From Candidatus Thalassarchaeum betae (GTDB lineage Archaea; Thermoplasmatota; Poseidoniia; Poseidoniales; Thalassarchaeaceae), in contig PSPG01000007.1 in assembly GCA_003193925.1 (NCBI GenBank), positions 13,612 to 77,611 of the forward strand: a stretch of DNA of 64,000 nt, in the 5' to 3' direction. The notes beneath the pieces are model-generated. The model did not search any database and was not told the origin of the DNA. It saw only the letters and a program-made list of their open reading frames with translations. Shown piece after piece: positions 3,201 through 25,006 of the stretch. Position numbers and translations under genes: made by a program. Numbering within the stretch: position 1 is the first letter of the stretch; each line of letters begins with the position of its first letter.

Positions 3201-4063
3201 ACGGTCTGTCTGACGGTTACGAGGTCAAGGTGACCGGCTCCGACCCGGTGAAATTCAACTTCGACAGGGATGAAGACGGGTTCTACGACTTCGAGGACTG
3301 CGAGGACCTGGTGGACACGATCAACCCCGACGGCATCGAGGCGTGGAACGGCTGGGACGACGACTGCAACGATGCAGTGGATGACGGACTGGACCGACGC
3401 ACTCTGGTGACTACCGAGCCGGACTTCAAGCGCGTTTACGCCTGGGACGCCGTCAATGACACTCTAGTGCTGACGATGAGCGCCATCCCACCTCAGGTCG
3501 AGGCAAGTATCTCCTGGCAGTTCGGGGACTTCACCCTGACCGACAATGTGAGTTCTGACGGCAAGACGGTGGTCATACGGCCGATTGACTGCGAGGTGCG
3601 CAACGGCACCCTGACGATCTACCTGTGCGACCAAGGGAGCGGTCCCCAGCAGGTCACTGCGACCATGGTGGACTCCGGGATCACCACCGTATTCGTCTGG
3701 GACCTCGACATGGAGGTCTGGATCCCTCCACCGACCCTGCTCGAGAGACTGTTCTCTTTCATCGTCAGCCCCATTGGCATCGTTGTCACCCTCGTGCTGC
3801 TGCTGACCGTCCTAGTCGGTGGTGTTTACGCTGGAATGAGGTTCTCGCACAACCGCAAACTCAAGGACGCCTACCAGGCATACGACCTGAAGTCCGAGAA
3901 GTTCGCCCTCTCGCCCGAGCTCGGGCAGTACGAGCTGCCATCAGCGCCGGACCTAGGCTCGCTGATAGGGCAACAGAACACCCCCGTCGAGCTCCCTCCA
4001 TTGCCTGCTCGCCCGGTCGAGGAGAGCGAAGACGGCATACCGAGAGCGCCGGACTTGGACTGA
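287..4063 (+). CDS. Membrane-anchored S8 (kexin/furin-like) serine protease with P-domain and Ca-binding/MopE-like repeats
   Basis: Signal peptide (alternative start 305). Triad motifs VVDDG, GHGTAVAG, GGTSSATP and oxyanion AAGNG. P-domain SHTARGDLDIVLVSPSG. Many DxDxDGLxD repeats and four DCxD...NGxDxDCD repeats. C-terminal TM helix. Confidence 0.93.
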   Translation: MQSGSTMRTALAVLLVLLIAPLGGVASGSPGAPVDLEIEGDEIMPTYSRSVQLGFNRVEDLNQYTEEQLSETNEWLVVTRVPIHRHLWTKAAPELSEPAPILRGAYIWHFEEPLKALPQLQKSLEAGEIESFSPLVLKKQNPRTIPNDTDFDDQWHLENTGQTNGVSGEDANVTGAWDTYTGTGVVISVVDDGLDHAHADLSPNYSPLLSYDWCNDDEDPSPSSWNGHGTAVAGVAAAVGNNSLDVTGIAFDATIAGSTLIACWAGDSLEADALSYENDDIDIYTNSWGPVDDGQTLEAPGPLTLAAFEYDAYQGREGLGNVITWAAGNGLGSNDNSNYDGYANSRYTIAVTAINHNGEQSYYAEPGANILVAAYSNGDGEGITTTDITGSGGYSNGNVTHDFGGTSSATPLAAGIIALILDANGNLTWRDVQHVLVNSARMNDASDSSWELNGGGHDVSHKYGFGVVDGGAAVSVAENWQNVGEELNATYGPYTPSIDIPDDSTGWTEVTTVVTQEYSLESVDVAVDISHTARGDLDIVLVSPSGTESWLAESRNDNGNHYSDWMFSTVRHWDESSLGTWTLKVRDTDSGTNGTLNSWELILHGVDVDYDHDDDGLSDENETLVYGTDPYNPDTDGDGLNDYDEVMVYGTNPLLTDTDLDGLTDAAEVFSTGTDPLDSDTDDDGLSDGAEVNYWLSDPLVYDPDADSDLFYHFNDCNDTNPDVNPGKPELLNGIDDDCDDYIDEGYNFTDRDNDGLMDWDEYHVHGTDYMDEDTDDDGLYDGEEVNIFASMGADPLVYDPDDDNDSWYWFQDCDDEDGERSPGHPELLDGLDNDCDFLIDEDYWTLDTDNDGLYDYDEFHNITTDPLDGDSDGDGLPDGLEYNEYASLGADPLVYDPDADSDGWYWFQDCDDNDSDRSPSKPEVLDAKDNDCDGVVDEDFFELDSDGDGLTDYEEYHNVTSNPGLADSDGDGLSDGYEVKVTGSDPVKFNFDRDEDGFYDFEDCEDLVDTINPDGIEAWNGWDDDCNDAVDDGLDRRTLVTTEPDFKRVYAWDAVNDTLVLTMSAIPPQVEASISWQFGDFTLTDNVSSDGKTVVIRPIDCEVRNGTLTIYLCDQGSGPQQVTATMVDSGITTVFVWDLDMEVWIPPPTLLERLFSFIVSPIGIVVTLVLLLTVLVGGVYAGMRFSHNRKLKDAYQAYDLKSEKFALSPELGQYELPSAPDLGSLIGQQNTPVELPPLPARPVEESEDGIPRAPDLD
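2395..3395 (+). repeat. Intragenic ~291-bp (97-aa) super-repeat in the S8 protease stalk
   Basis: GCTGGTACTGGTTCCAAGACTGCGACGAC occurs at 2706 and 2997 (291 bp apart). Four Cys-containing units alternate with DTDxDGL units. Confidence 0.85.
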
Positions 4064-5446
4064 TTAGGACCATCTGGGGTCAGCCTCGCCCGCTTCGTCG
4101 TCCGCGATGTCATCATCGTTACGCCCCCACTCGGCGTCTGGCGAGCCGCCGGACCACTCTCCCAAGACTGAGATGTCCTCGACATCCTCGTCTTCGCGCC
4201 ACGGCGGGTCGCCGTCGGAGCCACTGGTGACGAGACAGCCCTCGGGATCGAGTCTCTTCCTCAGCGTCTTAACACCGCGAGTCACCGGCAGGAGGTGTCC
4301 TATCGGGGTACCAGCGTTGACGAAAGGATGGGTGGCCGTGGAGATCAAGAGTCCCCTTGTCGGAGCGAGGACGTCGTAACCATCGCCCGGCCTCTCCGGA
4401 TCGGTCACGGTAGCCACCGTCTCGCCCTTCTCGACGAAGCTGCCAGCCGGGGTCAGCACGTCCAGCAGGCCGCCTTGGTCGGAGCGGATCCAGACCGAGC
4501 CTGAGGCCAGAATCCTGAATCTGGGACGGCTGGGGTATCCTGGTAGCACCTTGAGGCTGCGAAGCACGTTCAACACGCCGTAAATCGCCACTTGCACGGA
4601 CTCGGGGTCGGCCTCGTTCGGGCCACCGCCCTCGTAGGTGATGGCGCCGATACCGGAGTCGTTGGCCATTCTACGTAGAGAGCCCTTCGGGCCTTCGTTG
4701 TCGAGTATCGCCTCGATGCCGAAGGCCCTAGCGATTCTATTGCTGGCACGGTGGGCGAGGTTAGCGCGTATTTGCGGCATGTTGGTGCGACCCACGGCGG
4801 CGGTGTGCAGGTCGATCACGTGGTCGCTGCCTGAGATGACCTTGTTCCACAGGCGGTGAGCCACCCTGGAGGTTGTGTTGCTGTCGGGCTTGCCGGGGAA
4901 ACTGCGATTCAGATCCCTGCCGTCGGCCATGTACCTGCTCTGACGCCGATAGCCCGGGAGATTCACCACAGGGACGATCCGCAACGTGCCGGCCATGGCT
5001 GCAGGGTCGATCGCCTTGTCCTCGCCGAGGATGTTGGGGCCGCAGAGGTAAGTCAGGGCCAGCGGCCCGACGAGCTCGTTGCCGTGAAGAGCCCCTAGGA
5101 TGGTGACCACTGGCCCGGGCCTGGCACCGTGGACCACGGTGATAGGAATGGGCCATGACTCCCCGATGTCGACTTCCAGCAAGTCGAACTCGATCTGCCG
5201 GACGGTGCCGGGGTTGATTCTCTTCCTGAGGAACCTGTGATACTTCGGGCCGTCCTTCCTGGACCACCTCTTCGGTGTCCCGGAGCTGTCCTCGAGGGCC
5301 TTCTCGATCTCCTTCCTGCGGCTCTGGGGAATCTGATTGGCGACCTTCAGGGGCTGCGAGCGCCTGCGCTTGGCCCTCGGCGCCGCGGCCTCGGCGGGCT
5401 TGGCGGACTCCTTGTCATCTACATCTGAACGCTTGGCTGGCAACAA
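4064..5446 (-). CDS. Succinylglutamate desuccinylase/aspartoacylase family (M14-like) protein
   Basis: Motifs LHGNE, DLNRSFPG, IDLHT, ITYEGG. C-terminal biotinyl-like domain. Basic N-terminal extension. Confidence 0.88.
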   Translation of the reverse strand: MLPAKRSDVDDKESAKPAEAAAPRAKRRRSQPLKVANQIPQSRRKEIEKALEDSSGTPKRWSRKDGPKYHRFLRKRINPGTVRQIEFDLLEVDIGESWPIPITVVHGARPGPVVTILGALHGNELVGPLALTYLCGPNILGEDKAIDPAAMAGTLRIVPVVNLPGYRRQSRYMADGRDLNRSFPGKPDSNTTSRVAHRLWNKVISGSDHVIDLHTAAVGRTNMPQIRANLAHRASNRIARAFGIEAILDNEGPKGSLRRMANDSGIGAITYEGGGPNEADPESVQVAIYGVLNVLRSLKVLPGYPSRPRFRILASGSVWIRSDQGGLLDVLTPAGSFVEKGETVATVTDPERPGDGYDVLAPTRGLLISTATHPFVNAGTPIGHLLPVTRGVKTLRKRLDPEGCLVTSGSDGDPPWREDEDVEDISVLGEWSGGSPDAEWGRNDDDIADDEAGEADPRWS

Positions 5447-12583: not shown

Positions 12584-13573
12584 GCCCTCGGATGTCACGG
12601 TGAAGACCGCCTCGCCATCAGGCAGGTTGGGGCTGTCGACAAGGCGGGCTATGCGTCGGCCCCCCTTCGACTTCCTGAGGTACAAGCGGAATGTGCTGGC
12701 GTGTGCGACGATGTGGCCGCCAATCGCCCTAGTGGGGTCCCCCCACATGGAATCGGGCTTCGACATGACCTGGTTGGTAACCAGAATCAGAGCGTTCTGG
12801 ACGTCTGCCAGCTGCTTGAGTTCCTTCATGTGGCGGTTGAGTTTCTGCTGCCTCGGAGCGAGCATGCCGCGGCCGATGTACTCGGCCCGGAAGTGACTCG
12901 TCAGCGAGTCGACGATGACCAGCTTGACGTCTATGTTCTTCGACATCCTCTTGATCTCGTCAACGAGAAGGGTCTGGTGCGCTGAATTGTACGCGCGGGC
13001 AACGTGGATCCTGTCAAGCGCGTCCTGCGGGTCGATGCCGACCCCTTCGGCCATCTGCGCTATGCGCTCGGGCCTGAACGTGTCCTCGGTGTCGATGTAG
13101 AACACCTCGCCATCGAGGCCTCCCTGGTCGAGAGGCAGGATCGTGTTGACGGCGAGCTGGAGCGCAATCTGGGTCTTTCCGCTGCCGAACTCACCGTACA
13201 CCTCGACGATGGCCTGAGTCTCGAATCCCCCCCCCAGCAACTCGTCCAGGGAGGAGGAGCCGGAAGTCAGTTTCTTCACCCGTCGGCGACGATCCAGCAG
13301 GGCTTTGCCGCTGATGAAACCGCCGATGTTGGCTATCTTCTTGGCGCCCGCGATGATCTTGGCGGCGACGGCCTCGCCCAACTCGGCCTGCTCAGCCAGC
13401 TCCACCGGGCTCATCACCGCTATCGCGAGCAACTCCTCGAATCCGGCCTCACGCAGTTTCTCCGCGGTCGCGGGACCCACTCCTGGGAGATCCTCTATCG
13501 TGTTCTCCGGCTCATCCACGTCAATCACTACCTCCTCTTCCTTTACACTCTCACTTGCAGTCTTCTTGGTCAC
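12572..13573 (-). CDS. radA: DNA repair and recombination protein RadA
   Basis: N-terminal Hh[60 protein letters not shown] start at 13573 follows an AGGTGA RBS. Confidence 0.97.
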
Positions 13574-13711
13574 TTCTCTCACCTGTATGGCCGATATCGG
13601 GCTTCGATAGTATTTGAACAAACGATGGACCCCCTAGGGCGGTTGAAAGTGCTTCACACTGCGTACTTCCTAGGAGTGCGGCATTTTTCACTTTCAGTTC
13701 AGATTCGTTCG

Positions 13712-13789
13712 TGGTAGCGGATGGTGGATTTGAACCACCGGTCTCCGGGTTATGAGCCCGACGAGATAACCTGGCTACTCCAACCCGCT
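13712..13789 (-). tRNA. Initiator tRNA-Met (CAT)
   Basis: Reverse complement is AGCGGGTTGGAGTAGCCAGGTTATCTCGTCGGGCTCATAACCCGGAGACCGGTGGTTCAAATCCACCATCCGCTACCA. It has A1:U72, three G:C pairs in the anticodon stem, a CAT anticodon, encoded CCA and no intron. Confidence 0.96.
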
Positions 13790-13904
13790 TCGGACCCGCC
13801 GTAAACGGTTGGTTATATGAACAGCACCTTAGACGGAGGGAAGGCATGAGCGCGCATACGAACAGTCATGGGACTTCTCGCGCCGCAGCCTTTCAGGTGA
13901 GAGC

Positions 13905-15278
13905 GTGGCCGGGGACCTGCTGATTCGCAATTCTGTGATGATAGTGGGTGGGCGTGCCGTTGACGGCGATATGCGGGTGGTCGACGGGCTCATCGGCAGC
14001 ATCGCTCCTGGAGGCGGTCTCGAGCCCCGCGACGGCGAGTTGGTCATCGATGGCGATGGCTTGCACCTGCTACCCGGCGCCATCGACCCGCAAGTGCATT
14101 TCCGCGAGCCCGGGCAGCCGGAGAAGGAGGATATCGAAAGCGGCAGCAGGGCCGCTGCTGCTGGGGGGGTCACTGCCTTCCTCGACATGCCGAACAATGT
14201 CCCCATCGCGACCAGCATGGCTGCGATGCGGGACAAGCTAGACTCGGCCGCGCGCACCGCGGTGACTCATCACGGGTTCTTCATCGGGGCCACGCCAAAC
14301 AACGTCAGCGAACTACAGGCAGCGGTAGGGTCCCCCGATGCGCCCTCGCCGAGCGCCGGCATCTGCGGAATAAAGGTCTTCATGGGGAGCAGCACGGGCG
14401 ACCTGCTGGTCCACGAGCAGCAGCACCTGGAGGGCATCTTCGCTGGCACGGCGGGCATCATCGCGGTGCACGCCGAGGACGAGGACAGGCTCAACACGCG
14501 CAAGCCGGACTACGAGGACAGGACCGACGTCGCCGCGCATGCCGAGTGGCGGGACAGCGAGACCGCGTTCATCGCGACCCAGCGCGCCGCTGGGCTCGCC
14601 AATGACCATGGGCACAAGCTGCATGTCCTTCACCTGACCAGTGCACTGGAGGCAGACTGGCTGGCGAGCAACAAGGGCAGCCTGATTACCACTGAGGTCT
14701 GCCCCCAGCACCTCACTTTCGACGACAGCGACGTGGCCGAGCGTGGCACCCGCCTGGTGATGAACCCGCCAATCAGGTACGCGGGGGACCGTGAGACGCT
14801 ATGGCGCCGGCTCAAGGACGGCACCATCGACTGCATCGCCACCGATCACGCACCCCACACCCTCGACAACAAGGCCCTCGGCTTCCCCCACGCCCACGCC
14901 GGGATGCCCGGGGTGGAGAGCTCGTTGCCGCTGATGCTGACTCACGCGGCCGACGGGAGGTGCAGCGTCGCTGATGTGGCCCGCTGGATGTGCGAGGGAC
15001 CCGCACGCGTGTACGGGATGAGGGGCAAGGGCCGGCTCGAGGAGGGCATGGACGCCGATCTCGTGCTCGTCGACATGGAGACCCGCAGGTCCTTCTGCGA
15101 CGCAGACACCTGGACGCGGGTCGGCTGGACAGCTCTCGACGGGATGTCGTTGATAGGCTGGCCGATGTTCACCATCGTGGACGGCGAGGTCGTCCATTCG
15201 CGTGATGCGGGCGGGCCTCTGCGCGGAAACGCGGTCGCTTCACCCGGCTCAGTCGGGCGGGCTCTGGAATTCTCCTAA
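13905..15278 (+). CDS. pyrC: Dihydroorotase (amidohydrolase family)
   Basis: DPQVHFREPG, DMPN, VHAED, HVLHLT, EVCPQHL, MNPPIR, ATDHAPH. Confidence 0.82.
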   Translation: MAGDLLIRNSVMIVGGRAVDGDMRVVDGLIGSIAPGGGLEPRDGELVIDGDGLHLLPGAIDPQVHFREPGQPEKEDIESGSRAAAAGGVTAFLDMPNNVPIATSMAAMRDKLDSAARTAVTHHGFFIGATPNNVSELQAAVGSPDAPSPSAGICGIKVFMGSSTGDLLVHEQQHLEGIFAGTAGIIAVHAEDEDRLNTRKPDYEDRTDVAAHAEWRDSETAFIATQRAAGLANDHGHKLHVLHLTSALEADWLASNKGSLITTEVCPQHLTFDDSDVAERGTRLVMNPPIRYAGDRETLWRRLKDGTIDCIATDHAPHTLDNKALGFPHAHAGMPGVESSLPLMLTHAADGRCSVADVARWMCEGPARVYGMRGKGRLEEGMDADLVLVDMETRRSFCDADTWTRVGWTALDGMSLIGWPMFTIVDGEVVHSRDAGGPLRGNAVASPGSVGRALEFS

Positions 15279-17720
15279 TCAGCCTTCTACGGTTGCCGAG
15301 TCCTGGTCTTCCTCACCGGGATCTTCCTCGCCGTCATCGACTTTGGCTTCCTCGTCGTCATCCTCGTAGTAGTAGGTCTCGGGAGTCTCGTAGCCGGGAA
15401 GTTCGAGCTCGACCATGAGCTCGAGGTTGTCGGTCCTGTGGACCGAGGCGCCGGCGGTGGAGAAGGCGTAGACGTAGTCGCCCATGAAGATGGAGCGTCG
15501 GATGCTGGTGGAGCCGCCCCACCAGCCCGAGAGGCCGTCCTCGTTGTAGAAGTCGGAGTGGTTGACCATGCCGTGGATGCCGAGGGTGCCGTTCTCGGCG
15601 TCGACGTCGATCAATTGCAGGGTGGAGGCGAACTCGTAGCCCGAGTAGGTGTAGACGCGGCCGTCGATCTCTACTTGGTCGTACGTGTATCGATAGGTGG
15701 AGAGCGGTACAGCGAGCAGTTGCTCGGGCGCCCAGTAGGTGAACGCCTTGTGCTCGTAGGTGGCCTCGGAGTAGGACCACGACCAGCCGCAGCTCCACTC
15801 GTCGCAGTTCTCGTCCTCGTAGCCAGGCGAGAGCGGCAGGGCGTCAGCGAGGACCGGGTTGGTCGGGTCGCTGACGTCGAAGAGCGAGATCTGGGTCACG
15901 GACCAGTCGAGCCCGAGTCCGTCCGGGCCTGGCCCGATGCCAATGGTCAGGAGCGTGTCGGCGTCGATCGGGTGGATGTAGGTGGAGACGCCGGGGATCT
16001 CGAGCTCGCCGAGGATCTCGGGGTCGGTTGGGTCAGAGAGGTCGATGACCCACAGCGGGTCCATGTTGCGGAAGGTCACGAGGTAGGCGCGGTCGCCCAC
16101 GAAGCGGGCGCTCCAGATGCGCTCTCCGGCGGCGATGTCGCCGACGTGGCCAATCTCCACAAGCTCCGAGGTCTCGTCCTCGCAGCCCTCGGGAATCATG
16201 CACTCGGTGGCTGCGAGCGTGAACACGTTGTTCGTCGGCCCGGTCCACTCCTCGGTCTCGAGCCACCAGCGGCCCCAGGCGTCCTGGGTGGTAGCCACGC
16301 GGATGATGCCGTTGAGCTCAGAGAGCGAGAACTGGTCCTGCACCGTACCGTCGACCCTGCCAGATGCGACGTAGGTGGTCTCAGACGGGTCACTGATGTC
16401 GAAGATGTGAATGTTGGTCGCGTCGTCCCAGCCGGAATTGCGCCAGAACCACCACCAGTCGTTGGCGGGCTCGGCCAGAACCATGACGTCCTGAGAGGCG
16501 TAGACGTGGGCCCAAGACGAGGTGATGTGGTCGACTTCCAAGTCGACGTCGTCGCTGAACATCTGAATCGTCATAATCGTGGTGAAGCCGCGGCCGGCGC
16601 TGTCGGCGCTGGCGGCGAATTCGCTGCAGTCGCCAGAGCTGGTCGGGTGCTGGAACAGGCCCTGCGAGCCGATCTCGTAGATGTGTGGGGCGAAGTCATC
16701 CAGAGTTAGGTCATAGATGATCGCCGTGTTGGATGCTATGGTCTCCTCCATGCTCTCGTTCCAGATTTCCATCCTCTCCTCGTCGCTCTCGACGTTCCAG
16801 TAGTCCTCGGGCAAGTAGACCCAGGTACGCAGTCCCTCGATGTAAGTCCACAGGTGAGTCACCGAGCGGACGGTGCCGTCAACTAGTCGGGCGGTGTGGT
16901 AGTTGCCCTCGACGTAGATCTCGCGCTCCACCAAGGGAGCGGTTCGGTCGCTGACGTCGATGACGGTGTACTTGACTAGGTTCTGCACGCGCGTGTAGGT
17001 GTAGGAGTACTCTTCCTGACCGGGATAACTGACCGTCACCTCCTCGGACATGAACTCCCTGAGGGGGTCGTCCTGGTCGAGGCTCCAGTAGTAGATAGCC
17101 GATGCGACCACGAGCCGGTCTCCGTCGAGCATCATCTGCATCGGATAGCCCTGGATGCTCATGTTCGACTCGAGCGTGAGCTCGCCGAACTCTGGCACTC
17201 CCATAATCACCAACAGGTTTCCGTTGAGCATGTAGATGTGGTAGCCGTCGGTCTTGAGGAAGTCAGCCTCATCGACGCCCTCCTCCTGGTTGTTGGTCTC
17301 GGAGTACTCGCCCTCGCGACTCGTATCGGCGCTGTTGGATGAGCCGGCGTCGCCGTCTGCGCTGGCCACGGGAGCGCCTTCCATCATCACGTCGTCCTCC
17401 ATCCAGACGCCGCCGCCGCGCCAGACCGGGCCCGCCCAGTGCCAGTAGGACTCCTGGTCGAGCGCGACCAGCATCTCGTTGTTCACGGAGCCCTGTAGGT
17501 CAGCGAGGAGGAGTTCGCACTCGTCGTAGTTGTCGAGGACCGGCGAGGTGCGCTCGCGGGTCGGCAGATCCAGTCCGGGGTACTCCCCCTCGAGCCAGTC
17601 GAGAACGGGGTCGATCACTACGTCGTCGATATCGTCGACAACGTCGTCCATCAGGCCTAGGCAGCCTGAGCTGAGCATCATCACAAGCACCAGCATCGTA
17701 GCCGTGGGGCTTCTGTTCAT
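15279..17720 (-). CDS. Secreted beta-propeller domain lipoprotein (Beta_propel/PF09826-like)
   Basis: Lipobox SSGC, YSETNNQEEGVDEADFLKTDG, QFSLSE, GERIWSARF, YLVTFRNMDPLWVIDLSDP, LGELEIPG. ATG at 17720. Confidence 0.88.
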   Translation of the reverse strand: MNRSPTATMLVLVMMLSSGCLGLMDDVVDDIDDVVIDPVLDWLEGEYPGLDLPTRERTSPVLDNYDECELLLADLQGSVNNEMLVALDQESYWHWAGPVWRGGGVWMEDDVMMEGAPVASADGDAGSSNSADTSREGEYSETNNQEEGVDEADFLKTDGYHIYMLNGNLLVIMGVPEFGELTLESNMSIQGYPMQMMLDGDRLVVASAIYYWSLDQDDPLREFMSEEVTVSYPGQEEYSYTYTRVQNLVKYTVIDVSDRTAPLVEREIYVEGNYHTARLVDGTVRSVTHLWTYIEGLRTWVYLPEDYWNVESDEERMEIWNESMEETIASNTAIIYDLTLDDFAPHIYEIGSQGLFQHPTSSGDCSEFAASADSAGRGFTTIMTIQMFSDDVDLEVDHITSSWAHVYASQDVMVLAEPANDWWWFWRNSGWDDATNIHIFDISDPSETTYVASGRVDGTVQDQFSLSELNGIIRVATTQDAWGRWWLETEEWTGPTNNVFTLAATECMIPEGCEDETSELVEIGHVGDIAAGERIWSARFVGDRAYLVTFRNMDPLWVIDLSDPTDPEILGELEIPGVSTYIHPIDADTLLTIGIGPGPDGLGLDWSVTQISLFDVSDPTNPVLADALPLSPGYEDENCDEWSCGWSWSYSEATYEHKAFTYWAPEQLLAVPLSTYRYTYDQVEIDGRVYTYSGYEFASTLQLIDVDAENGTLGIHGMVNHSDFYNEDGLSGWWGGSTSIRRSIFMGDYVYAFSTAGASVHRTDNLELMVELELPGYETPETYYYEDDDEEAKVDDGEEDPGEEDQDSATVEG

Positions 17721-17756
17721 GCGGTGGGCGAATCGCTGGACGGATATCAAGCGGTT

Positions 17757-17776
17757 GGTGAGATGATTGGACAATT
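17757..17776 (-). promoter_or_regulatory. Shared upstream motif, copy 1 (beta-propeller gene)
   Basis: + strand GGTGAGATGATTGGACAATT begins 37 bp from the ATG. It overlaps the perfect palindrome GGACAATTGTCC (17769-17780). Confidence 0.6.
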
Positions 17777-17797
17777 GTCCGGCCTCAGGCCTCGAAT

Positions 17798-18001
17798 TCA
17801 AACCATGGGCTCGCGTGGGAAGAACGGGAGAACCAGCGCATTGCGCAGCATTGGGGCAGGGATCGGATCCTCAGTATCCTCCTCCTTCCGGGTCATGGCG
17901 TTCGTCGTTCCAACGTCTCCCTCTTCGGTACCGGAGACGAGGCCTTGCGTGCCGCTCAGGAAAATCAGCGCGGCGATGTGTAGGTCCAGGTTTCGGTCCA
18001 T
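17798..18001 (-). CDS. Small protein or gene remnant paralogous to the N-terminus of the double-dockerin protein
   Basis: First 36 aa are 25/36 identical to the N-terminus of 19759-20388. The upstream DNA is also similar. No dockerin follows. Confidence 0.6.
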   Translation of the reverse strand: MDRNLDLHIAALIFLSGTQGLVSGTEEGDVGTTNAMTRKEEDTEDPIPAPMLRNALVLPFFPREPMV

Positions 18002-18060
18002 GAACAGCAATCATCTGCATACCCGACATAAGCGGCTTGGGTCCATGAGTCACTCTTGCA

Positions 18061-18699
18061 TCAACTCCCGACCAAAGGCACGAAGCGGACGCCGCATACG
18101 TCGCTTCGGTGCAGTGCGCCGTCCTTCTCCTGCCACTTCGCCAGACGCTGCCTCCTCCACCTGCCTATAGGTGCCACTATGGTGCCGCCAGGGGTTATCT
18201 GCTCGGGCCACGCCGCGGGCAGTCTCTTGGCGCAGGCGGCTGCGATGATCGCTTCGTACGGAGCGTGCTCGATCAGGCCCGTCTGCCCGTTGGCTGCTCT
18301 CAGCGAAGCAGGGGTGAGATCCAGTTCCTCCAGAGTCGTCCTCGAGGCCTCGGCGAGCTTCGGCAGAATCTCGATCGCGTGCACCTCTAGGCCCATGTGG
18401 ACGAGAATGGCGGTCTGGTAGCCGGAGCCCGAGCCGATCTCGAGCACCTTGGCCCCCTCTTCGAGTTCGCTCAGGAGGCTGCTCATCATCGCGACGATAT
18501 ACGGCTGGCTGATGGTCTGGCCGCTACCGATGGGAACGGGGCGGTCGCCGTAAGCCAGCCCGAGCTTGCTCGAAGGCACGAAGCGGTGACGGGGAATCTC
18601 CCTCATTGCAGCTAGGACGCGCTCGTCGCTGATTCCCCGCGCCACCAGCTGCTTGTCCACCATCGCCTCCCTCTGGGAGCGTATGGCGGCGTCGCCCAT
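18061..18699 (-). CDS. pcm: Protein-L-isoaspartate O-methyltransferase
   Basis: PRHRFVP, GSGQTISQPYIVA, VLEIGSGSGYQTA, APYEAII, VRFVPLV. Confidence 0.93.
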   Translation of the reverse strand: MGDAAIRSQREAMVDKQLVARGISDERVLAAMREIPRHRFVPSSKLGLAYGDRPVPIGSGQTISQPYIVAMMSSLLSELEEGAKVLEIGSGSGYQTAILVHMGLEVHAIEILPKLAEASRTTLEELDLTPASLRAANGQTGLIEHAPYEAIIAAACAKRLPAAWPEQITPGGTIVAPIGRWRRQRLAKWQEKDGALHRSDVCGVRFVPLVGS

Positions 18700-18793
18700 C
18701 GGAGCACCTCTGGGGCGAGTTCCGCGCCTCCGGACTTGACCTTGACGGTGCGAAGTAGAAAGAAAGAAGGGGTCCGGCGATGCACGCAAGCGC

Positions 18794-19741
18794 ATGGAAG
18801 CGCCGCCGAGCCTCGCGGACGGCAGGGTAGGCAAGATCGAATACCCATCGGCCAACCCTTTCGAGATTCATCACATCCTGCGCAAGATGGACTCGGTGCC
18901 GCCCCACCCCGTATTCGGCTCCCTGCTGGTGCCCGAGCACCCGGTCAGCGAGCCAATGCCGTGCGTGGTCGCCATGCACGGGAGCCTGAACTGGTGCGGC
19001 CACCACCACGAGCACATCGTGGGCTGGCTCGAAGCCGGCTTCGCCGTCTTTAGGGTGCACAGCTTCGACTCGCGCCGCATCTGGTCCACGGTCGAGCGCC
19101 AGATGAAAGTGACATACGCCATGATGCTGACGGACGTCTTCCAGGCCCTCAGGATGTTATCCACCCACCCAGCGGTAGATCCCACCCGCATCGGGATCGC
19201 CGGGTGGAGCCTCGGCGGCACGGTCGCCCTGTACTCGGCCTGGGAGCCCATCGCCGAGGCGCTGGCACCCGGCGGCGAGCGCTTTGCAGCGCATCTCTCC
19301 TTCTATCCCGCAGCGCACCTGCGGATGGATGAGCAACGCTGGTCGCAGAGCCCCATCCTGGTACTGCACGGCTCCGAGGACGACTGGGTTCCGCTGAGCC
19401 TGGTCGAGGGGCTGGTCGAGGACATCAGACCGCACGGCGCGAACATCGAGGTTCACGTCTACGAGGGCGCGCAGCACTCGTTCGACTCGGTCGAGCCGCT
19501 GACCTTCGAACCCAAGGCCATCAGGCTGGACGGCCACATGACCGTCCGCATCGACGTGGAGGGCGACATGTCGTCGGAGATCATGCCGGGCGTGGTTATT
19601 CCGCTCAACGAACCCGAAGAGCGGTTGGCGGCCTTCGCGACCGCCCCCAACCTCGGAATCCACAAGGGGGGGCAGTGGACGGCGCGAAGGCACGCGCTTG
19701 GTTACAGCACTGAGTTCTTCCAGAGGAATCTCAGCGTCTAG
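18794..19741 (+). CDS. Dienelactone hydrolase-family alpha/beta hydrolase
   Basis: Nucleophile elbow GWSLGG, LHGSEDDWVP, YEGAQHSFD (Ser-Asp-His triad). Confidence 0.85.
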   Translation: MEAPPSLADGRVGKIEYPSANPFEIHHILRKMDSVPPHPVFGSLLVPEHPVSEPMPCVVAMHGSLNWCGHHHEHIVGWLEAGFAVFRVHSFDSRRIWSTVERQMKVTYAMMLTDVFQALRMLSTHPAVDPTRIGIAGWSLGGTVALYSAWEPIAEALAPGGERFAAHLSFYPAAHLRMDEQRWSQSPILVLHGSEDDWVPLSLVEGLVEDIRPHGANIEVHVYEGAQHSFDSVEPLTFEPKAIRLDGHMTVRIDVEGDMSSEIMPGVVIPLNEPEERLAAFATAPNLGIHKGGQWTARRHALGYSTEFFQRNLSV

Positions 19742-19758
19742 TGGTGGCTCGTCCCGCC

Positions 19759-20388
19759 TCAGCAGCGCTCGCACTGAGCGCCCCAGAGGTGGTTGGCGAG
19801 AAGCACCAGGTCGAGCACGTTGACCGCGTGGTCACCGTTGATGTCGGCCCCTGCCATCGAAGCAGGTGCGTCCCCGTAGCCGAGGATATACTGCACCATG
19901 ACGATGAAATCGCCGAGGTCGACGCTGCCGTCGCCGTTCGCGTCACCGCGAAGCGTGCGCACGGGCTGCAGCTCGGAGATCGCTACCACAGGCTTGTCGG
20001 CCTTGCTAGCGCTGGTCTTGGCCCGGCTGTCCAGCGACTGCGCGCCGGAGTCGGACTCGTCCTCCCCCCAGAGATAGTCAGCCAGCAGCACCAGGTCGGC
20101 AACGTCGACCGAGCGGTCGCCGTTGATATCGGCCTGTGCCATCGAAGCAGGTGCGTCCCCGTAGCCGAGGATATACTGCACCATCACGATGAAGTCGCCG
20201 ATGTCGACGCTTCCGTCGTCGTTCGCGTCACCGCGGAGGTAACGCACGTCGAAGGGAGCAGCCTCAGCTGACTCGCCATCCATGTCTTTCGTCGTTTCAA
20301 CGTCCCCGATGTATTCACCAGAGACGAGGCCTGCCGTGCCGGCCAAAAAGATCAGCGCGGCGATTGTTAGGTCCACTGTTCGGTCCAT
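19759..20388 (-). CDS. Secreted protein consisting of two dockerin type I-like domains
   Basis: Hydrophobic N-terminus. Two copies of GDANxDGSVDxGDFIVMVQYILG...ADINGDxxVxVxDLVLLAxxLWG. Ends in CERC. Confidence 0.85.
   Translation of the reverse strand: MDRTVDLTIAALIFLAGTAGLVSGEYIGDVETTKDMDGESAEAAPFDVRYLRGDANDDGSVDIGDFIVMVQYILGYGDAPASMAQADINGDRSVDVADLVLLADYLWGEDESDSGAQSLDSRAKTSASKADKPVVAISELQPVRTLRGDANGDGSVDLGDFIVMVQYILGYGDAPASMAGADINGDHAVNVLDLVLLANHLWGAQCERC
19780..20240 (-). repeat. Intragenic tandem duplication of the dockerin domain (285-bp period)
   Basis: 48 bp are identical at 19852-19899 and 20137-20184. Confidence 0.9.
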
Positions 20389-20425
20389 GAAACAACCCCA
20401 TCGGTGTACTAGACATAAGTAACTT

Positions 20426-20445
20426 GGTTCAATGATTGGACATTC
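20426..20445 (-). promoter_or_regulatory. Shared upstream motif, copy 2 (dockerin gene)
   Basis: + strand GGTTCAATGATTGGACATTC begins 38 bp from the ATG. 15/20 identical to copy 1, including 11 contiguous bases (ATGATTGGACA). Confidence 0.6.
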
Positions 20446-20458
20446 TTCAACGCCGAGA

Positions 20459-20725
20459 AGGTGAATCAGAGGGTAGGGAATCCACTACCGAGCAGTCACT
20501 CGGTGGGTATGCAGCAGAATTGGTTGGTTGGGCTTACCGAGGCACCCATGAAACTAGCAACCAATGGATAGGGTTCACCTAGGAACCCACGCGACCACTA
20601 GTGGTTAGTTGGGTTCCCTACCTACTACCCGTGGTTGATAGGGCCCCCCCATACCCCATTCAACCACCCGTGATGGATAGGGGGCCCCTTGCAACCTACC
20701 ATTCAAGCAGGGCACCCCCTTCTGC
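20459..20725. other. Non-coding cluster of inverted repeats (candidate structured RNA or DNA element)
   Basis: At least five stems, including the dyad GGAACCCA-N4-ACCACTAGTGGT-N4-TGGGTTCC (20582-20617). GATAGGG occurs three times. Confidence 0.55.
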
Positions 20726-20729
20726 AATC

Positions 20730-20861
20730 GTGGCCAAGGACGACACTAGCACGATGTTCAAGCTCGGGACATTCGACGGTTTGAGCCCACGATCTCTCGT
20801 GCTGCAAGGCTTGGGCTTGGGCGTAGTGGCTGCCGTATTGTGGTGGTATCCCGGTCCATGA
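20730..20861 (+). CDS. Putative small single-TM protein
   Basis: (VAKDDTST)MFKLGTFDGLSPRSLVLQGLGLGVVAAVLWWYPGP*. The stop overlaps the GNAT start as ATGA. Start is 20730 (GTG) or 20754 (ATG). Confidence 0.45.
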   Translation: MAKDDTSTMFKLGTFDGLSPRSLVLQGLGLGVVAAVLWWYPGP

Positions 20862-21334
20862 TCCGTGAATGCCTCGAAGACGATTTTGAAGCGATCTACG
20901 AGATCATCAACGACGCCGCACAAGCTTATCGGGGAATCATCCCACCCGACCGTTGGCACGACCCGTACATGCCTCGAGGAGAACTTCGGGAGGAGATATC
21001 GGCCGGGGTCGCTTTCCTGGGTTATGAAAAAGAGGGGGAGTTGGCCGGGGTGATGGGGACACAAGACGTTCAGGACGTGACGCTGATCCGTCACGCCTAC
21101 GTGCGCACCGCGCATCGCAACCAGGGCATCGGCGGGGAGCTCTTGGGCCAGATTATGGACGGGGCAACCCGTCCGGTCTTGATAGGCACCTGGGCCGATG
21201 CGTTCTGGGCGATCCATTTCTACGAACGCCACGGTTTCACAGTGGTCTCACCGGGGGAGAAGGAACGGCTGCTGCGGAAGTATTGGAGCGTGCCAGACCG
21301 TCAGATTGTGACGTCCGTGGTGCTGGCCGCCTAG
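20858..21334 (+). CDS. GNAT family N-acetyltransferase
   Basis: Acetyl-CoA motif YVRTAHRNQGIGGELL and WAIHFYERHGF. Confidence 0.9.
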   Translation: MIRECLEDDFEAIYEIINDAAQAYRGIIPPDRWHDPYMPRGELREEISAGVAFLGYEKEGELAGVMGTQDVQDVTLIRHAYVRTAHRNQGIGGELLGQIMDGATRPVLIGTWADAFWAIHFYERHGFTVVSPGEKERLLRKYWSVPDRQIVTSVVLAA

Positions 21335-21338
21335 TGAT

Positions 21339-22181
21339 TCAGGCTGCAGCCTCGACCCGGGCGACCTCTCTGGAGGAGATCAGCACGTTCTTCCCGGTAT
21401 CGGAGAGTCGCCACTTGGGGCGTCTGGCCTCCGTGGCTGGCTCGACCATCCTGCCGTTGCGCAGCTCGCTCAGGTGGTGGCTCAGCAGCTGCCGCGAGAT
21501 GGCCAGCTTAACGCGGATCTCGGTGCCCGAGAGCCCGATGTTGCCCGACTCCGCCAGCACTTCGAGGATCGCCAGGCGGGTGCCGGCGATCGGGTTGCGA
21601 ATCCGGCTGACCGCCTCCTTGGTCAGGCTGGCGATGGCGTAACGGCGCAGCTTGCCGTCCCTCCACGAGATGATTTGGCCTTGTGACTCGAGGGTGTGGA
21701 GGTGGTATGCGGTGACTCCGTTGGCAAGGCCCAGGGCGTCACGCAGGGCGGAGAAGTGGATTCCCGCGTTCGCCTCGAGGTAACCGAGCAGCCTACCGCG
21801 GGTGAGCATGTCATCGCGGTTGCTCTTCATCCTAGCGAGCATCGGGGAGACCAGTGCGACGAGCACGGTGACCCGCATCACCTCGAACAGGATCGAGCCG
21901 AGTGCAAGCGAGCCGAGAGCGCCCACCCCGCCGGCGAGAAGTCGGGCGGGCAGGTCGGAGGCGGAGTCGTCGTCCTTCTCCCCGCGCTTCAGTACGGGCC
22001 CCCCGTCCGAGCTCTCCGAGTCCCCCGAAGAGTCCTCTTCGGCAAACGTGGGGGCCGTGCCCCTATCGTCATCGACGGTGTCGACGATGTCGTCGACGGG
22101 GGCGTTCATCATCCAGCCCCCGGCGAGCATCGCAGCCACCGCCAGAGCGGTCACGAAACGCACCGTCCGGACGCCTTCCAT
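21339..22181 (-). CDS. Membrane-anchored transcriptional regulator with two winged-helix domains (COG3398-like)
   Basis: Two hydrophobic segments flank an acidic linker. RGRLLGYLEANAGIHFSALRDALGLANGVTAYHLHTLE is followed by a second HTH, LAISRQLLSHHLSEL. Confidence 0.82.
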   Translation of the reverse strand: MEGVRTVRFVTALAVAAMLAGGWMMNAPVDDIVDTVDDDRGTAPTFAEEDSSGDSESSDGGPVLKRGEKDDDSASDLPARLLAGGVGALGSLALGSILFEVMRVTVLVALVSPMLARMKSNRDDMLTRGRLLGYLEANAGIHFSALRDALGLANGVTAYHLHTLESQGQIISWRDGKLRRYAIASLTKEAVSRIRNPIAGTRLAILEVLAESGNIGLSGTEIRVKLAISRQLLSHHLSELRNGRMVEPATEARRPKWRLSDTGKNVLISSREVARVEAAA

Positions 22182-22217
22182 CACTCTGCGCAACCCTCCT
22201 TCACCTATGACTGCCGT

Positions 22218-22237
22218 GGTGAATTGGTTTGACAAAT
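22218..22237 (-). promoter_or_regulatory. Shared upstream motif, copy 3 (wHTH regulator gene)
   Basis: + strand GGTGAATTGGTTTGACAAAT begins 37 bp from the ATG at 22181. 15/20 identical to copy 1. Confidence 0.5.
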
Positions 22238-22283
22238 CAGAGTGGTGTTGAATAGTGGAACTCCCATCACGGGCCGAGCAGCG

Positions 22284-23315
22284 ATGGCCGAGGAGTCAGA
22301 TGTTACCATTGGTGACGACGACGAGCGAGCGGAGGCCATGCTTACCGCAGCCCGCTCTGTAGTGAGGACCTGTATGCAGGTCCGGCCTCACGAGCACGTG
22401 CTGGTGGTCACCGACCCGTCGACTTCCAAGGTCGGGCGCTCCTTGTACGAGGCAGCGGCTGAGGTCACCGATAGGATACTCATGATGATGATGCCGCGCA
22501 GCCACAGGCAGGGCAACGAGCCACCTTCATCCGTCGGCGACCTGATGCGTCGCCAGAACGTGGTACTGCTCGCCACTCGCAATTCCCTGACCCACACCCG
22601 TGCGAGAATCACCGCCTCACGAGAGGGAGCTAGGATAGCCTCGATGCCCGGCATCGATGAGGAGATGCTGGCAATCGGCGGGATGACCGCTGACTACAAC
22701 GCCCTGCAGCGTGAGATATCGGGCCTCAACCCAATACTTCGCAGGCGTCGCGACGTCCGTGTCACGAGTCCGGCCGGGACCGACGTCAAATTCCGCACCG
22801 GCGCCAGATGGGTCTTGGAGGACAACGGCATCTGCAACCGGCCGGGACAGATCGCCAACCTGCCTGCAGGGAAGGTGTTCGTCCTCCCGAAAGAGGGGTC
22901 GATGAACGGCAAGGTCGTAATAGACGGCTCGTGGGAAGGGGAACTGCTCGATGAGCCGTTGATTTTCCTCGTAGAGGACGGTCTGGTCGTAGGCATCACA
23001 GGCGGCGAGCTCGCTGAGAGCGTCCAATCTGTCCTGGACGAGGCCAAGGTCGGGCTGCGCCAGTCCAAGGCCGGCCTGGTCAACACGGTCGCCGAGTTCG
23101 GCTTCGGGATGAACTCACGAGCCAGACTGACCGGAAACAGGCTCGAGGATCAGGTGGTTCGCGGCTCCGCTTACTTCGGATTCGGCGACAACACCGCCCT
23201 CGGTGGGAGTGCGAATGTCGGAGTGCACATGCGCGGTGTCATGCTCAAACCGAGCATCGAGCTCAATGACGTCGATCTCGTGCTCAAGGGCAAGGTCACT
23301 GCCCGCAAGAGGTGA
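22284..23315 (+). CDS. M29 (aminopeptidase T/II-like) homolog with degenerate metal site
   Basis: Family features GARIASMPGI, VTSPAGTD, NLPAGKVF, AEFGFGMN, FGFGDN. Several ligands are substituted. Confidence 0.8.
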   Translation: MAEESDVTIGDDDERAEAMLTAARSVVRTCMQVRPHEHVLVVTDPSTSKVGRSLYEAAAEVTDRILMMMMPRSHRQGNEPPSSVGDLMRRQNVVLLATRNSLTHTRARITASREGARIASMPGIDEEMLAIGGMTADYNALQREISGLNPILRRRRDVRVTSPAGTDVKFRTGARWVLEDNGICNRPGQIANLPAGKVFVLPKEGSMNGKVVIDGSWEGELLDEPLIFLVEDGLVVGITGGELAESVQSVLDEAKVGLRQSKAGLVNTVAEFGFGMNSRARLTGNRLEDQVVRGSAYFGFGDNTALGGSANVGVHMRGVMLKPSIELNDVDLVLKGKVTARKR

Positions 23316-23935
23316 TGCCAGTGCGAGCTCTCCTCTGGTGCAACGGCCAGCAGCCATCCTCGCATGTCGCAGAGGCCCTGCTGCAGGCCGGCTCGACGCC
23401 CTTCGGGGTCGATGGTGGTGCTGACAAGGCCGCTAGGGCGGGAATCGTGGTCGAGGAGGTCCTCGGTGATCTCGATTCGGTGGAGCTCGGCCAATGGGAG
23501 GGCAGGACCCACGAACTGCCCGACGACTCCAGCAGCGACTTGGCCAAGTCGATTGCGCTGCTCATCGAGCGGGGCTACAGCGAGATTGACGTGGTGGGCT
23601 CCGACGGAGGCTCGACGGACCACGTCTTGGGAAACTGGGCTGCGCTCTGCGAGGCCCCGGGAGGGGCTCGCATCCGCCTTCATCACGAGGATGCCGTCAC
23701 CCACCGGCTCCACCCACAGGATGGTGGCTTGGAGCTTGAGATCAGAGAGGGCAATGAGTTCTCAGTGTTCGCTCTGAGCCCCTGCAGCAGCGTCCATCTG
23801 CAAGGAGCCGAGTGGAATCTGGACGGAGAGGCTCTGAGCCTCTCCACCAGAGGGTTGCACAACCGAGGCACTGGAGACGTCGTTCGGATTCAGGCCGACG
23901 GGATTCTCGCCGTAATCGTCCCGAGATGGGAATGA
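23312..23935 (+). CDS. thiN: Thiamine pyrophosphokinase
   Basis: VDGGAD, LGDLDS, SSDLAKSI, GGSTDHVLGN, TRGLHN. Confidence 0.82.
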   Translation: MMPVRALLWCNGQQPSSHVAEALLQAGSTPFGVDGGADKAARAGIVVEEVLGDLDSVELGQWEGRTHELPDDSSSDLAKSIALLIERGYSEIDVVGSDGGSTDHVLGNWAALCEAPGGARIRLHHEDAVTHRLHPQDGGLELEIREGNEFSVFALSPCSSVHLQGAEWNLDGEALSLSTRGLHNRGTGDVVRIQADGILAVIVPRWE

Positions 23936-25006
23936 TCACTCCTCTTCGGCTACCTTCGGGTCGCGTGAGAGCATCATCGCGATCGGCCGGGTCCTCGGGT
24001 CGGACTCCAGCGCGATTTTCATGATGACTGCTAGAGGCACACCGAGTACCATTCCCATGATGCCCCACGCCCAACCCCAGAAGGCCACTAGCAAGAGCAG
24101 TACGATCGGTGACATGTCGAGCCTCTGTCCGGCTAGCTGGGGCTCGACCAAGGCGCCCCATACCTGCTGGTTGGTCACGAGTACCACGATGAGTATGATG
24201 GCCCATGTCGGTGAGAGGATGATGAGGCCCAGTAAGATCGGTGGAATCAGGGATATCAGCGCCCCGACGTAGGGGATGAAATCCATCATGAAGGTGATAG
24301 AGGCCCACATGAACCAGCCGGGGACATCGAGATACCAGAGCATTATCCCGGCGATCACGGCCTGCCCGAAGGCTACGGTGGCCCTCGTCACGACGTAGGT
24401 GTTGATCCCCTCCCCGGCGTTGCTCGTGATGTCCTCGATGCGCTCGGCGTCACTCGGGTATGCCGCCTTGACCCTGCGTGGGAGGGTCTCGGCCTCGAGT
24501 ATGATGAAGAGCAGGAAGATGAAGACGGTGGCCACGTTTACGGTGAAACTCGCGAGAGAGCCTACGAACGAGGCGATGTACTGGTCGATGGTCTCCACAG
24601 AGAAGAGTTCCGTCAGCCCGCTGATGTCGAAACTGTAGCCCATTATCGAGATTCCCTCGAGCCACGTGACCTTGTCGTTGAGTTGTTGGGTCAACATAGG
24701 GACCTCATCGGTGAAGGCCGTGAGGTTGGCGTACAGGAGCTGCGAGGCCATCCACAGCACGAGGAAGAGCATGGCCACCAAAACGCCGTAGGGCATCAAT
24801 GGATGGGCGTACTTCCCCTGCATCAGCGGCCGCTCCTCCAGCCATTGCGCAGCAGGCCGTATCAGTAGGAAGAGCAGCACAGCGATCACCAGTGGCTGTA
24901 TGACCACTTGGAGGCGGGTAATGGCCAAGACCGAGACCAGCAGGATGATCGCTATGTTCGCCACTGTGGCAGACTGCAAATCACTCAGGCTCTGTCCCTT
25001 TCCCAT
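23936..25006 (-). CDS. AI-2E (PerM) family transporter
   Basis: FIPYVGALI, VEPQLAGQRLDMSP, WGWAWGIMGMVLGVPL. Confidence 0.88.
   Translation of the reverse strand: MGKGQSLSDLQSATVANIAIILLVSVLAITRLQVVIQPLVIAVLLFLLIRPAAQWLEERPLMQGKYAHPLMPYGVLVAMLFLVLWMASQLLYANLTAFTDEVPMLTQQLNDKVTWLEGISIMGYSFDISGLTELFSVETIDQYIASFVGSLASFTVNVATVFIFLLFIILEAETLPRRVKAAYPSDAERIEDITSNAGEGINTYVVTRATVAFGQAVIAGIMLWYLDVPGWFMWASITFMMDFIPYVGALISLIPPILLGLIILSPTWAIILIVVLVTNQQVWGALVEPQLAGQRLDMSPIVLLLLVAFWGWAWGIMGMVLGVPLAVIMKIALESDPRTRPIAMMLSRDPKVAEEE

Follow-up and report, generated by a model that had tools for sequence, protein, structure and literature searches.

Transmembrane transcription regulators (TTRs) are one-component regulators that act from the membrane, and according to Demey et al. 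2023 (PMC10269533), which also cites archaeal TTRs regulating motility and pilin genes, they are widespread in archaea at about four per genome. ArnR and ArnR1 of Sulfolobus acidocaldarius are described in PMC6396743 as membrane-bound activators of archaellum and pilus genes. Here we analyze a 64,000-nucleotide (nt) stretch of DNA from the archaeon Candidatus Thalassarchaeum betae, referred to below as the window, which is part of contig C1 of a genome of 1.48 Mb in 23 contigs (about 62% G+C, 92% complete). On its minus strand, a short bipartite promoter element, the box, precedes the genes of a membrane-anchored regulator with two winged helix-turn-helix (wHTH) domains, of a beta-propeller lipoprotein, and of a secreted protein with two dockerin modules. 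Comparison with related genomes makes it likely that the tandem winged-helix protein, a transmembrane regulator that also controls its own gene, governs a small regulon of surface proteins.

The regulator has a predicted DNA-binding domain and predicted transmembrane (TM) segments and falls under the operational definition of a TTR in Demey et al. 2023. It departs from described TTRs in that its DNA-binding part is C-terminal and made up of two different winged-helix domains, and in its short acidic outside loop. The likeness to ArnR lies in the predicted role, that of an archaeal membrane-bound regulator of surface-structure genes with promoter-proximal sites. ArnR carries an N-terminal HTH and C-terminal TM segments, whereas here the order is reversed, with TM1, a loop, and TM2 followed by the two winged helices. 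Moreover, only the generic HTH fold is common to both in a Pfam scan, the organisms belong to different phyla, and the box described here is asymmetric rather than an inverted repeat.

Bacterial ToxR and CadC are membrane-tethered single-protein systems leading from signal to promoter, are often autoregulated, and control envelope or secreted proteins; their winged helix is N-terminal and of the OmpR type, and their periplasmic sensor is folded. The regulator would resemble them as a single membrane-tethered protein with envelope and secreted targets but gives no Trans_reg_C match in Pfam at an E value of ≤0.01. Its second domain matches MarR_2 and ArsR-type models, and the nearest solved structures, in sequence as well as in fold, are ArsR, HlyU, and MarR proteins. 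In contrast to MarR and ArsR/SmtB proteins, which are small soluble homodimers on palindromic operators, it combines two unlike domains and membrane segments in one chain, and its box is not palindromic. Ptr2 and TFB-RF1, soluble archaeal activators of other families, bind just upstream of the transcription factor B recognition element (BRE) and TATA box and recruit TBP or TFB. The box likewise lies immediately upstream of the core promoter, although activation is a conjecture in the present case. The literature searched, which did not extend to File S1 of Demey et al. 2023, contained no operator or regulon for the regulator's family and no description of the box, of the family's targets, or of any transcription factor operator or regulon in Marine Group II (MGII) archaea.

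Results

A bipartite box at a fixed distance from three start codons

The original prediction had singled out three similar 20-mers at 17757, 20426, and 22218 (plus-strand coordinates), of which the second and third each match the first at 15 of 20 positions, and which are separated by 37, 38, and 37 nt, respectively, from the start codons (ATG) at 17720, 20388, and 22181. Recounting gave exactly the same positions, identities, and distances. On the coding strand, the 17-base core of the box reads GT[CA][CA]AA[TC]CA-N4-ACCA(A), with TGTCCAATCATCTCACC at 17757-17773 before the beta-propeller gene (copy 1), TGTCCAATCATTGAACC at 20426-20442 before the dockerin gene (copy 2), and TGTCAAACCAATTCACC at 22218-22234, or −53 to −37 from the ATG, before the regulator gene (copy 3), all on the minus strand. 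Each copy is followed on the same strand by a TATA-like element, namely TTGATAT at 17744-17750 (TTGAT at −30 of the propeller gene), CTTATGT at 20413-20419 (TTATG at −30 of the dockerin gene), and GTCATAG at 22205-22211 (−30 from the regulator ATG). The last of these is also conserved in orthologs.

The box is asymmetric and keeps a fixed orientation towards its gene, ending 5 to 6 bp upstream of the TATA-like element. Its two conserved blocks, GTCAAATCA and ACCA(A), have their centers about 11 bp apart, a spacing that would place both on one face of the helix. Within the 64-kb window, the pattern TGTCMAAYCANNNNACC with at most one mismatch occurs only at the three sites, against a shuffle expectation of 0.15, and none of 100 shuffles reached three; this test is partly circular, as the pattern was derived from the same sites. 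For this reason, independent support was sought in orthologs.

The start of the regulator at 22181 had been an assumption. It now appears well founded, given that MEGVRTVR is conserved from this ATG in 20 orthologs of the genus, with GTCATAG at −30 and the box at its fixed distance. A half-degenerate fourth copy had also been proposed upstream of a small open reading frame (ORF). Such a sequence does exist at about 18036-18053 on the minus strand (GTGACTCATGGACCCAAG, followed by CTTATG), but it is a distinct variant that scores negative with the weight matrix described below; it precedes the ORF of 67 amino acids (aa) and is conserved within the genus as GTGACTCA[AT]GG[AG]CCCAAG. On the other side of the regulator promoter, in the region 22237-22290, a divergent M29-peptidase-like gene (ATG at 22284) has a conserved TTGAATA on the opposite strand, about 12 nt from the regulator's box, and the box could also affect this gene.

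The box is conserved before orthologs while its flanks are not

For scoring, 54 distinct sites taken from related loci (effective number, approximately 10) were combined into a 21-nt position weight matrix (PWM); the training sites came in part from lineages that were later scored, and several of the counts below rest on related genomes. Among 80 species-level regulator loci from a public collection, 78 carry a site with a score of 15 or more, positioned −53 to −55 relative to the regulator start, and the two misses are partial protein matches. Likewise, in an alignment of relatives the box stands at the same distance in 27 of 30 loci; in the other three, truncated alignments misplaced the start, and one of these (G031) does show the box. 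Among 74 distinct regulator promoters (effective number, 24), the 21-nt box holds 1.50 bits of information per position, compared with 0.20 bits for the 25 nt upstream of it and 0.32 bits for the stretch from the TATA-like element to the ATG. A palindromic dimer operator was rejected on the basis of these 74 promoters, in which the conserved box is non-palindromic.

The same holds for the other two genes. Before propeller orthologs across the order, the box, in the form GT[CA]AAATCA-N4-ACCAA-N4-TT[CA]ATA, is kept down to 40% protein identity despite large shifts in base composition. Before dockerin orthologs, it is found at −55 in all 12 distinct upstream regions, while the sequence further upstream varies freely. 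Conservation at a fixed position upstream of regulator, propeller, and dockerin orthologs, which had been put forward as a check, is thus borne out. Across the 80 related loci (501 kb), the PWM finds 130 sites scoring at least 18, compared with none for a column-reversed PWM, and in 126 of the 130 an ORF 50 aa or more in length begins downstream, its start codon lying at +51 to +55. This constraint on position and orientation is independent of the training of the matrix.

These data bear on the very improbable explanation that the three promoters are alike by chance or because promoters were duplicated along with their genes. In favor of duplication, the dockerin gene, the 67-aa ORF, and a 105-aa gene on contig C12 are paralogs that share the first ~40 codons and much upstream sequence. 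Yet the regulator, propeller, and dockerin proteins are unrelated and still have the box at the same offset, and the box persists across orthologs at 40 to 50% identity as its flanks randomize. Chance, or a pure relic of duplication, is contradicted by this ortholog conservation, by the information content of the flanks, and by the 130-to-0 scan with its start codon constraint.

The box is rare in the genome

Promoter context was examined for 556 genes that start with ATG and are preceded by 60 nt or more of intergenic sequence, called by a simple codon usage model (a crude caller). Upstream of these genes, the A+T content peaks at −35 to −26, and the words TTCAA, TTCAT, TTGAT, TTATG, and TCATA peak in the −30 to −26 bin (30, 19, 13, 9, and 7 occurrences, respectively). 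Promoters in this genome would seem to use TTCAA/TTCAT/TTGAT/TTATG words instead of a canonical TATA box, and the position of the peak relative to the ATG suggests that most mRNAs are leaderless. The box-bearing promoters had been described as only weakly TATA-like. This view is not upheld, since TTGAT, TTATG, and (G)TCATA at −30 are ordinary elements of this genome and not unusually weak.

The location of the box, directly upstream of the TATA-like element and at the position of the BRE, could be taken to indicate a general promoter element, such as an extended BRE before most genes. We regard this as extremely unlikely. Among 100 promoters aligned on TTCA[AT], no consensus appears at the position of the box, which argues that the box is not part of the general promoter. 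When the 23 contigs (1.48 Mb) were scanned on both strands with the PWM, the control was exceeded at no more than four sites: those of the dockerin gene (33.0), the regulator gene (27.9), and the propeller gene (27.5), and one on contig C12 (21.5). The fifth-best match scores 16.7 and the best match of the column-reversed control 17.5. All four sites precede an ATG with a TATA-like word at −30, the C12 site lying before the 105-aa ORF, which is similar to the dockerin protein over its first ~40 residues. Also, a strict form of the pattern (see below) occurs only one to nine times per related genome. The aligned promoters and the genome scan together contradict a general element, and the genome-wide motif check shows a rare box rather than one at background frequency.

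Short contigs from RNA libraries of three studies (90 to 99% identity) partly cover the regulator gene, the propeller and dockerin genes, and the small ORF; none of them spans a predicted start, and they show neither transcript starts nor levels.

The regulator is a predicted membrane protein with two unlike winged helices

The gene at 21339-22181 (minus strand) encodes 280 aa. Its description as a membrane-tethered double-wHTH regulator is supported by two hydrophobic segments and two winged-helix domains. PF24266, the HVO_0163-type N-terminal HTH, matches residues 127 to 183 with 48.3 bits (cutoff, 31), and PF12802 (MarR_2) matches residues 201 to 253 with 31 bits (cutoff, 27); PF13412 (HTH_24; 33.4 bits; cutoff, 21.9) and PF01022 (HTH_5) are also matched in the Pfam scan. 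In a Kyte-Doolittle profile, 19-residue windows beginning with residue 7 and with residues 81 to 98 exceed 1.6, and an AlphaFold2 (AF2) model has helices at 2 to 25 and 77 to 116. We place TM1 at about residues 7 to 25 and TM2 at about residues 89 to 116, with the two winged helices predicted to be cytoplasmic; both TM segments are conserved in 19 orthologs. In the same alignment, wHTH1 is nearly invariant across the order, while the outside loop is short, acidic, and poorly conserved and has no recognizable sensor domain. Given these features of the loop, a folded sensor is unlikely.

The AF2 model (mean predicted local distance difference test score [pLDDT], 58.5) is good for the second winged helix only, with pLDDT values of 40 to 55 in wHTH1. 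A Foldseek comparison of this model with the PDB gave no match at an E value of ≤0.001 and only generic MarR/ArsR winged helices, and a profile search of PDB sequences returned only ArsR and HlyU proteins (best E value, 9.7e-5). The NCBIfam ArsR subfamily NF033788 scores 51.6 bits, under its cutoff of 55. Database names for the protein are "hypothetical protein," "predicted transcriptional regulator," and "ArsR family," and no functional description of HVO_0163 was found in the literature searched.

Named relatives of the regulator gene belong to Marine Group II archaea, within the family Thalassarchaeaceae of the Poseidoniales. All but one of 20 genomes from the genus contain an ortholog, and the sister families have orthologs with 40 to 52% identity. 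A sequence search for relatives showed 203 regulator-encoding stretches. Among the relatives G021 to G040, most genomes of the order also encode a third class of protein with the same tandem winged-helix region, 814 to 980 aa long (E values of about 1e-11 to 1e-20).

A paralogous regulator has its own variant of the box

On contig C6 (about 966-4992, minus strand), the window's genome encodes a 331-aa paralog (from MERAPAH). Its TM1 and TM2 flank a conserved outside domain of about 90 aa and are followed by PF24266 (45.1 bits) and MarR-type domains. The gene directly after it encodes a lipobox-bearing PKD-domain protein of 992 aa. A variant box, TGACAAA[TC][CG]C-N4-ACCCA, precedes both the paralog gene (ATG at +53) and the PKD lipoprotein gene (ATG at +54), with a TTAA-type element after the box, and it is present at both promoters in all 11 loci, those of the window's genome and of ten others of the genus (L217 to L227). 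The recognition helix of wHTH1 reads NGVTAYHL in the regulator versus NHQAVHHL in the paralog, while the second recognition helix is nearly identical (SRQLLSHHL versus SQQLVSHHL). Each paralog thus has its own type of box at its own promoter and at that of a neighboring lipoprotein gene, as autoregulated, site-specific factors would predict, and such paralog-specific boxes are hard to reconcile with a shared general factor.

Predicted targets and their linkage to the regulator gene

Four proteins of interest, of 813, 67, 209, and 280 aa, are encoded on the minus strand between 15279 and 22181, with unrelated genes interspersed (in the Pfam scan, an isoaspartyl methyltransferase, a dienelactone hydrolase-like protein, and a GNAT acetyltransferase). 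The 813-aa protein (15279-17720) had been called a beta-propeller lipoprotein, and indeed it matches Beta_propel (PF09826) with an E value of 1.9e-115 over model positions 1 to 494 of 495 and has the lipobox LSSGC. G19 and C20 of this predicted lipoprotein signal are invariant in 16 of 16 orthologs, and the gene is present in 40 of 41 relatives. A sequence search gave no solved relative, and the literature searched contained no relevant paper on PF09826.

Of 20 relatives from outside the genus, 10 (G022, G023, G026, G031, G032, G034, G036, G037, G038, and G040) have the regulator gene immediately next to the propeller gene on one strand. Of the 80 species-level loci, 75 have at least 400 nt after the regulator gene, and in 36 of these the propeller gene lies directly downstream, with the box between the two genes in 29; in 15 more of the 80 loci, the propeller gene occupies another position, no farther than about 3 kb from the regulator. 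In the window's own genus, other genes have been inserted between the two, which are 3.6 to 9 kb apart. In G029 (L055/L216), the gene upstream of the propeller gene encodes a receiver-domain-like protein with a C-terminal hydrophobic segment.

The 209-aa secreted protein (19759-20388) carries two dockerin type I modules (PF00404; E value of 7.9e-23, in two stretches), in agreement with its annotation as a double dockerin. Matches to this protein (E value of ≤1e-5) are found in 17 of 41 genomes, all of genus g1; cohesin (PF00963) gave no match in the window's own genome, which is 92% complete. The 67-aa (17798-18001, minus strand), 209-aa, and 105-aa (contig C12, 10964-11281) proteins, all of the secreted type, have near-identical first ~40 residues and then diverge. 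This shared N-terminal module, MD..(D/E)L.IAALIFL.GT.GLVSG followed by E.IG.VETT, is genus specific among the genomes searched, and the length of the small ORF is kept within the genus at 66 to 67 aa in 12 distinct loci.

The dockerin promoter is separated from the GNAT gene by a spacer of 470 nt that contains, at 20470-20700, degenerate direct repeats of about 26 to 27 nt (ACCACCCGTG.T.GATAGGG-like) and an 18-nt inverted repeat. As contigs from other samples end there with loose ends, this part of the spacer seems to vary between strains. An Rfam search of positions 13000-25000 of the window found a tRNA as the sole match and none in the spacer repeats. Elsewhere in the assembly, contigs C2, C15, and C22 (4.3 to 7.4 kb) have a G+C content of 45 to 46%, compared with 57 to 63% in the others, and may be foreign or misbinned.

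Co-occurrence of regulator and box

The distribution of the regulator in Poseidoniales is patchy. Orthologs (E value of ≤1e-30) were found in 27 of 40 genomes of one family and 37 of 65 of the other, but in none of 45 genomes from the remaining two families of the class. The propeller promoter could be compared in 38 genomes, 30 with the regulator and 8 without a detected ortholog. It carries a box scoring at least 17 in 29 of the 30 regulator-bearing genomes; in the 30th, G027, a site scoring 33.0 is found at another copy of the propeller gene. G027 (L052/L094) has two tandem propeller paralogs, the upstream one with this perfect box and the second without a box.

Six of the eight genomes without a detected regulator score at most 11.1 at the propeller promoter. 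The left half of the box is lost in G033, G039, and G021, the box is degenerate in G028, and G024 has none; the low score of G025 comes from a PWM scan around an estimated start (the query alignment begins at residue 54), with about 30 nt upstream read by eye. Some of these six belong to genera g7 and g8, in which sister genomes carry the regulator together with the box.

In a wider search, the strict pattern GTMMAANCANNNNACCA occurs 3.86 times per genome versus 1.91 for a reversed control in 65 regulator-bearing genomes and 2.12 versus 1.56 times in 41 Poseidoniales genomes without the regulator; p-values for this comparison overstate the case because the genomes are related. The strict pattern gave 21 matches, versus 13 for the control, in five genomes from other genera, and at least 12 of the 21 have an ATG at +50 to +52. 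In the other families, none of ten recurrent matches inspected had a start codon at the right distance, the matches lying inside coding sequence. Further genes preceded by the box in the sister family encode a collagen-repeat/DUF7151 membrane protein, a secreted protein with a C-type lectin domain, and a large secreted repeat protein. MGII mRNA from a Red Sea sample is, according to parts of Hou et al. 2016 (PMC5069720), dominated by "collagen-like cell surface" and other disordered proteins; in the same parts of that text, its supplementary list of transcription start sites (Table S5) aside, no MGII promoter motif is mentioned.

In L068 and L087 (G031 and G026), a conserved G+C-rich leader of about 130 nt (GGCC..GGGCCGAAGGCCC) lies about 60 to 190 nt downstream of the box and TATA-like element, before a gene for a secreted protein. 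This leader may be a structured 5′ untranslated region or a small RNA; Rfam at the gathering threshold gave no match in L068 and L087.

Discussion

Conservation of the box, its specificity, synteny, the variant box of the paralog, and co-occurrence lend comparative support to the original proposal of an autoregulated regulator that controls a surface module. The box is probably the operator of the membrane-anchored protein encoded at 21339-22181. In the simplest reading, one regulator molecule would place its two unlike winged-helix domains on the two half-sites, as both domains reside in one chain and the first is almost invariant. The predicted targets are the regulator's own gene, the Beta_propel lipoprotein gene and, in the genus, the double-dockerin gene and the 105-aa paralog gene on C12; in the sister family, collagen-repeat, C-type lectin, and other secreted-protein genes would be added. 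Since the box touches the position of the BRE, the bound protein would adjoin TFB and TBP, could help or hinder them, and might in this way set the rate of initiation. Archaeal activators typically bind just upstream of the BRE and TATA box, and for that reason we consider activation somewhat more likely than repression. The box with its specificity, position, and conservation, the gene linkage, and the variant box of the paralog are observed, whereas binding by the regulator, the direction in which it acts, its working from the membrane, and any signal are inferred.

Several observations weigh against this interpretation. Two genomes without a detected regulator, G029 (94% complete) and G001 (67% complete), have an intact box at the propeller promoter, and G039, also lacking an ortholog, has a box-like site (ATG at +51) before a lectin-domain gene. 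Part of the excess of strict matches in regulator-bearing genomes consists of the regulator's own site, and some of the lineages scored with the PWM had themselves contributed sites to it. The overlap of the box with the expected BRE position fits repression as well as it fits activation. Furthermore, as the AF2 model of wHTH1 is poor, the assignment of two domains to two half-sites draws on Pfam and alignment only, and the case as a whole is built on sequence comparison.

Conceivably, the box is a real regulatory element that is read by a different factor, either another transcription factor or a variant TFB or TBP, the winged-helix gene being one member of the regulon. The sites in G029 and G039 would fit such an arrangement, as would the proximity of the box to the BRE/TATA region where general factors act. 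Most relatives also encode a further paralog class of about 850 to 980 aa with the same winged-helix region, and binding of the box by the regulator is itself a prediction. Nevertheless, we judge a different reader to be unlikely. The box precedes the regulator gene in 78 of 80 loci, it decays at the propeller promoter in six of the eight genomes that lack the regulator, and the genome scan yields only four sites. The variant box at the paralog's own promoter and that of its neighbor, in 11 of 11 loci, is not what a shared general factor would predict. An autoregulated membrane regulator acting through the box is the reading that we prefer.

Taken further, the observations might be joined in a more speculative picture, to which we give limited credence. 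Membrane-anchored regulators with tandem winged helices would form a family specific to the MGII lineage. Each paralog would recognize an asymmetric two-part box of its own and, from the membrane, drive leaderless genes, both that of a cognate surface lipoprotein and those of further secreted proteins, including the collagen-like surface proteins in Poseidoniaceae.

Marine Group II archaea are abundant and uncultured, and this study yields a concrete candidate operator, a candidate binding protein with an expressible soluble domain, and a short list of target genes for surface and secreted proteins. The paralog with its variant box provides a built-in control for specificity. Hence, regulation of the MGII cell surface becomes testable in vitro without culture, and a defined candidate DNA site is added to the poorly understood transmembrane transcription regulators of archaea. 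If the broader picture is true, promoters held at the membrane would couple transcription, translation, and export, and the regulator family would be a master switch of the cell surface proteome in the most abundant planktonic archaea of the ocean.

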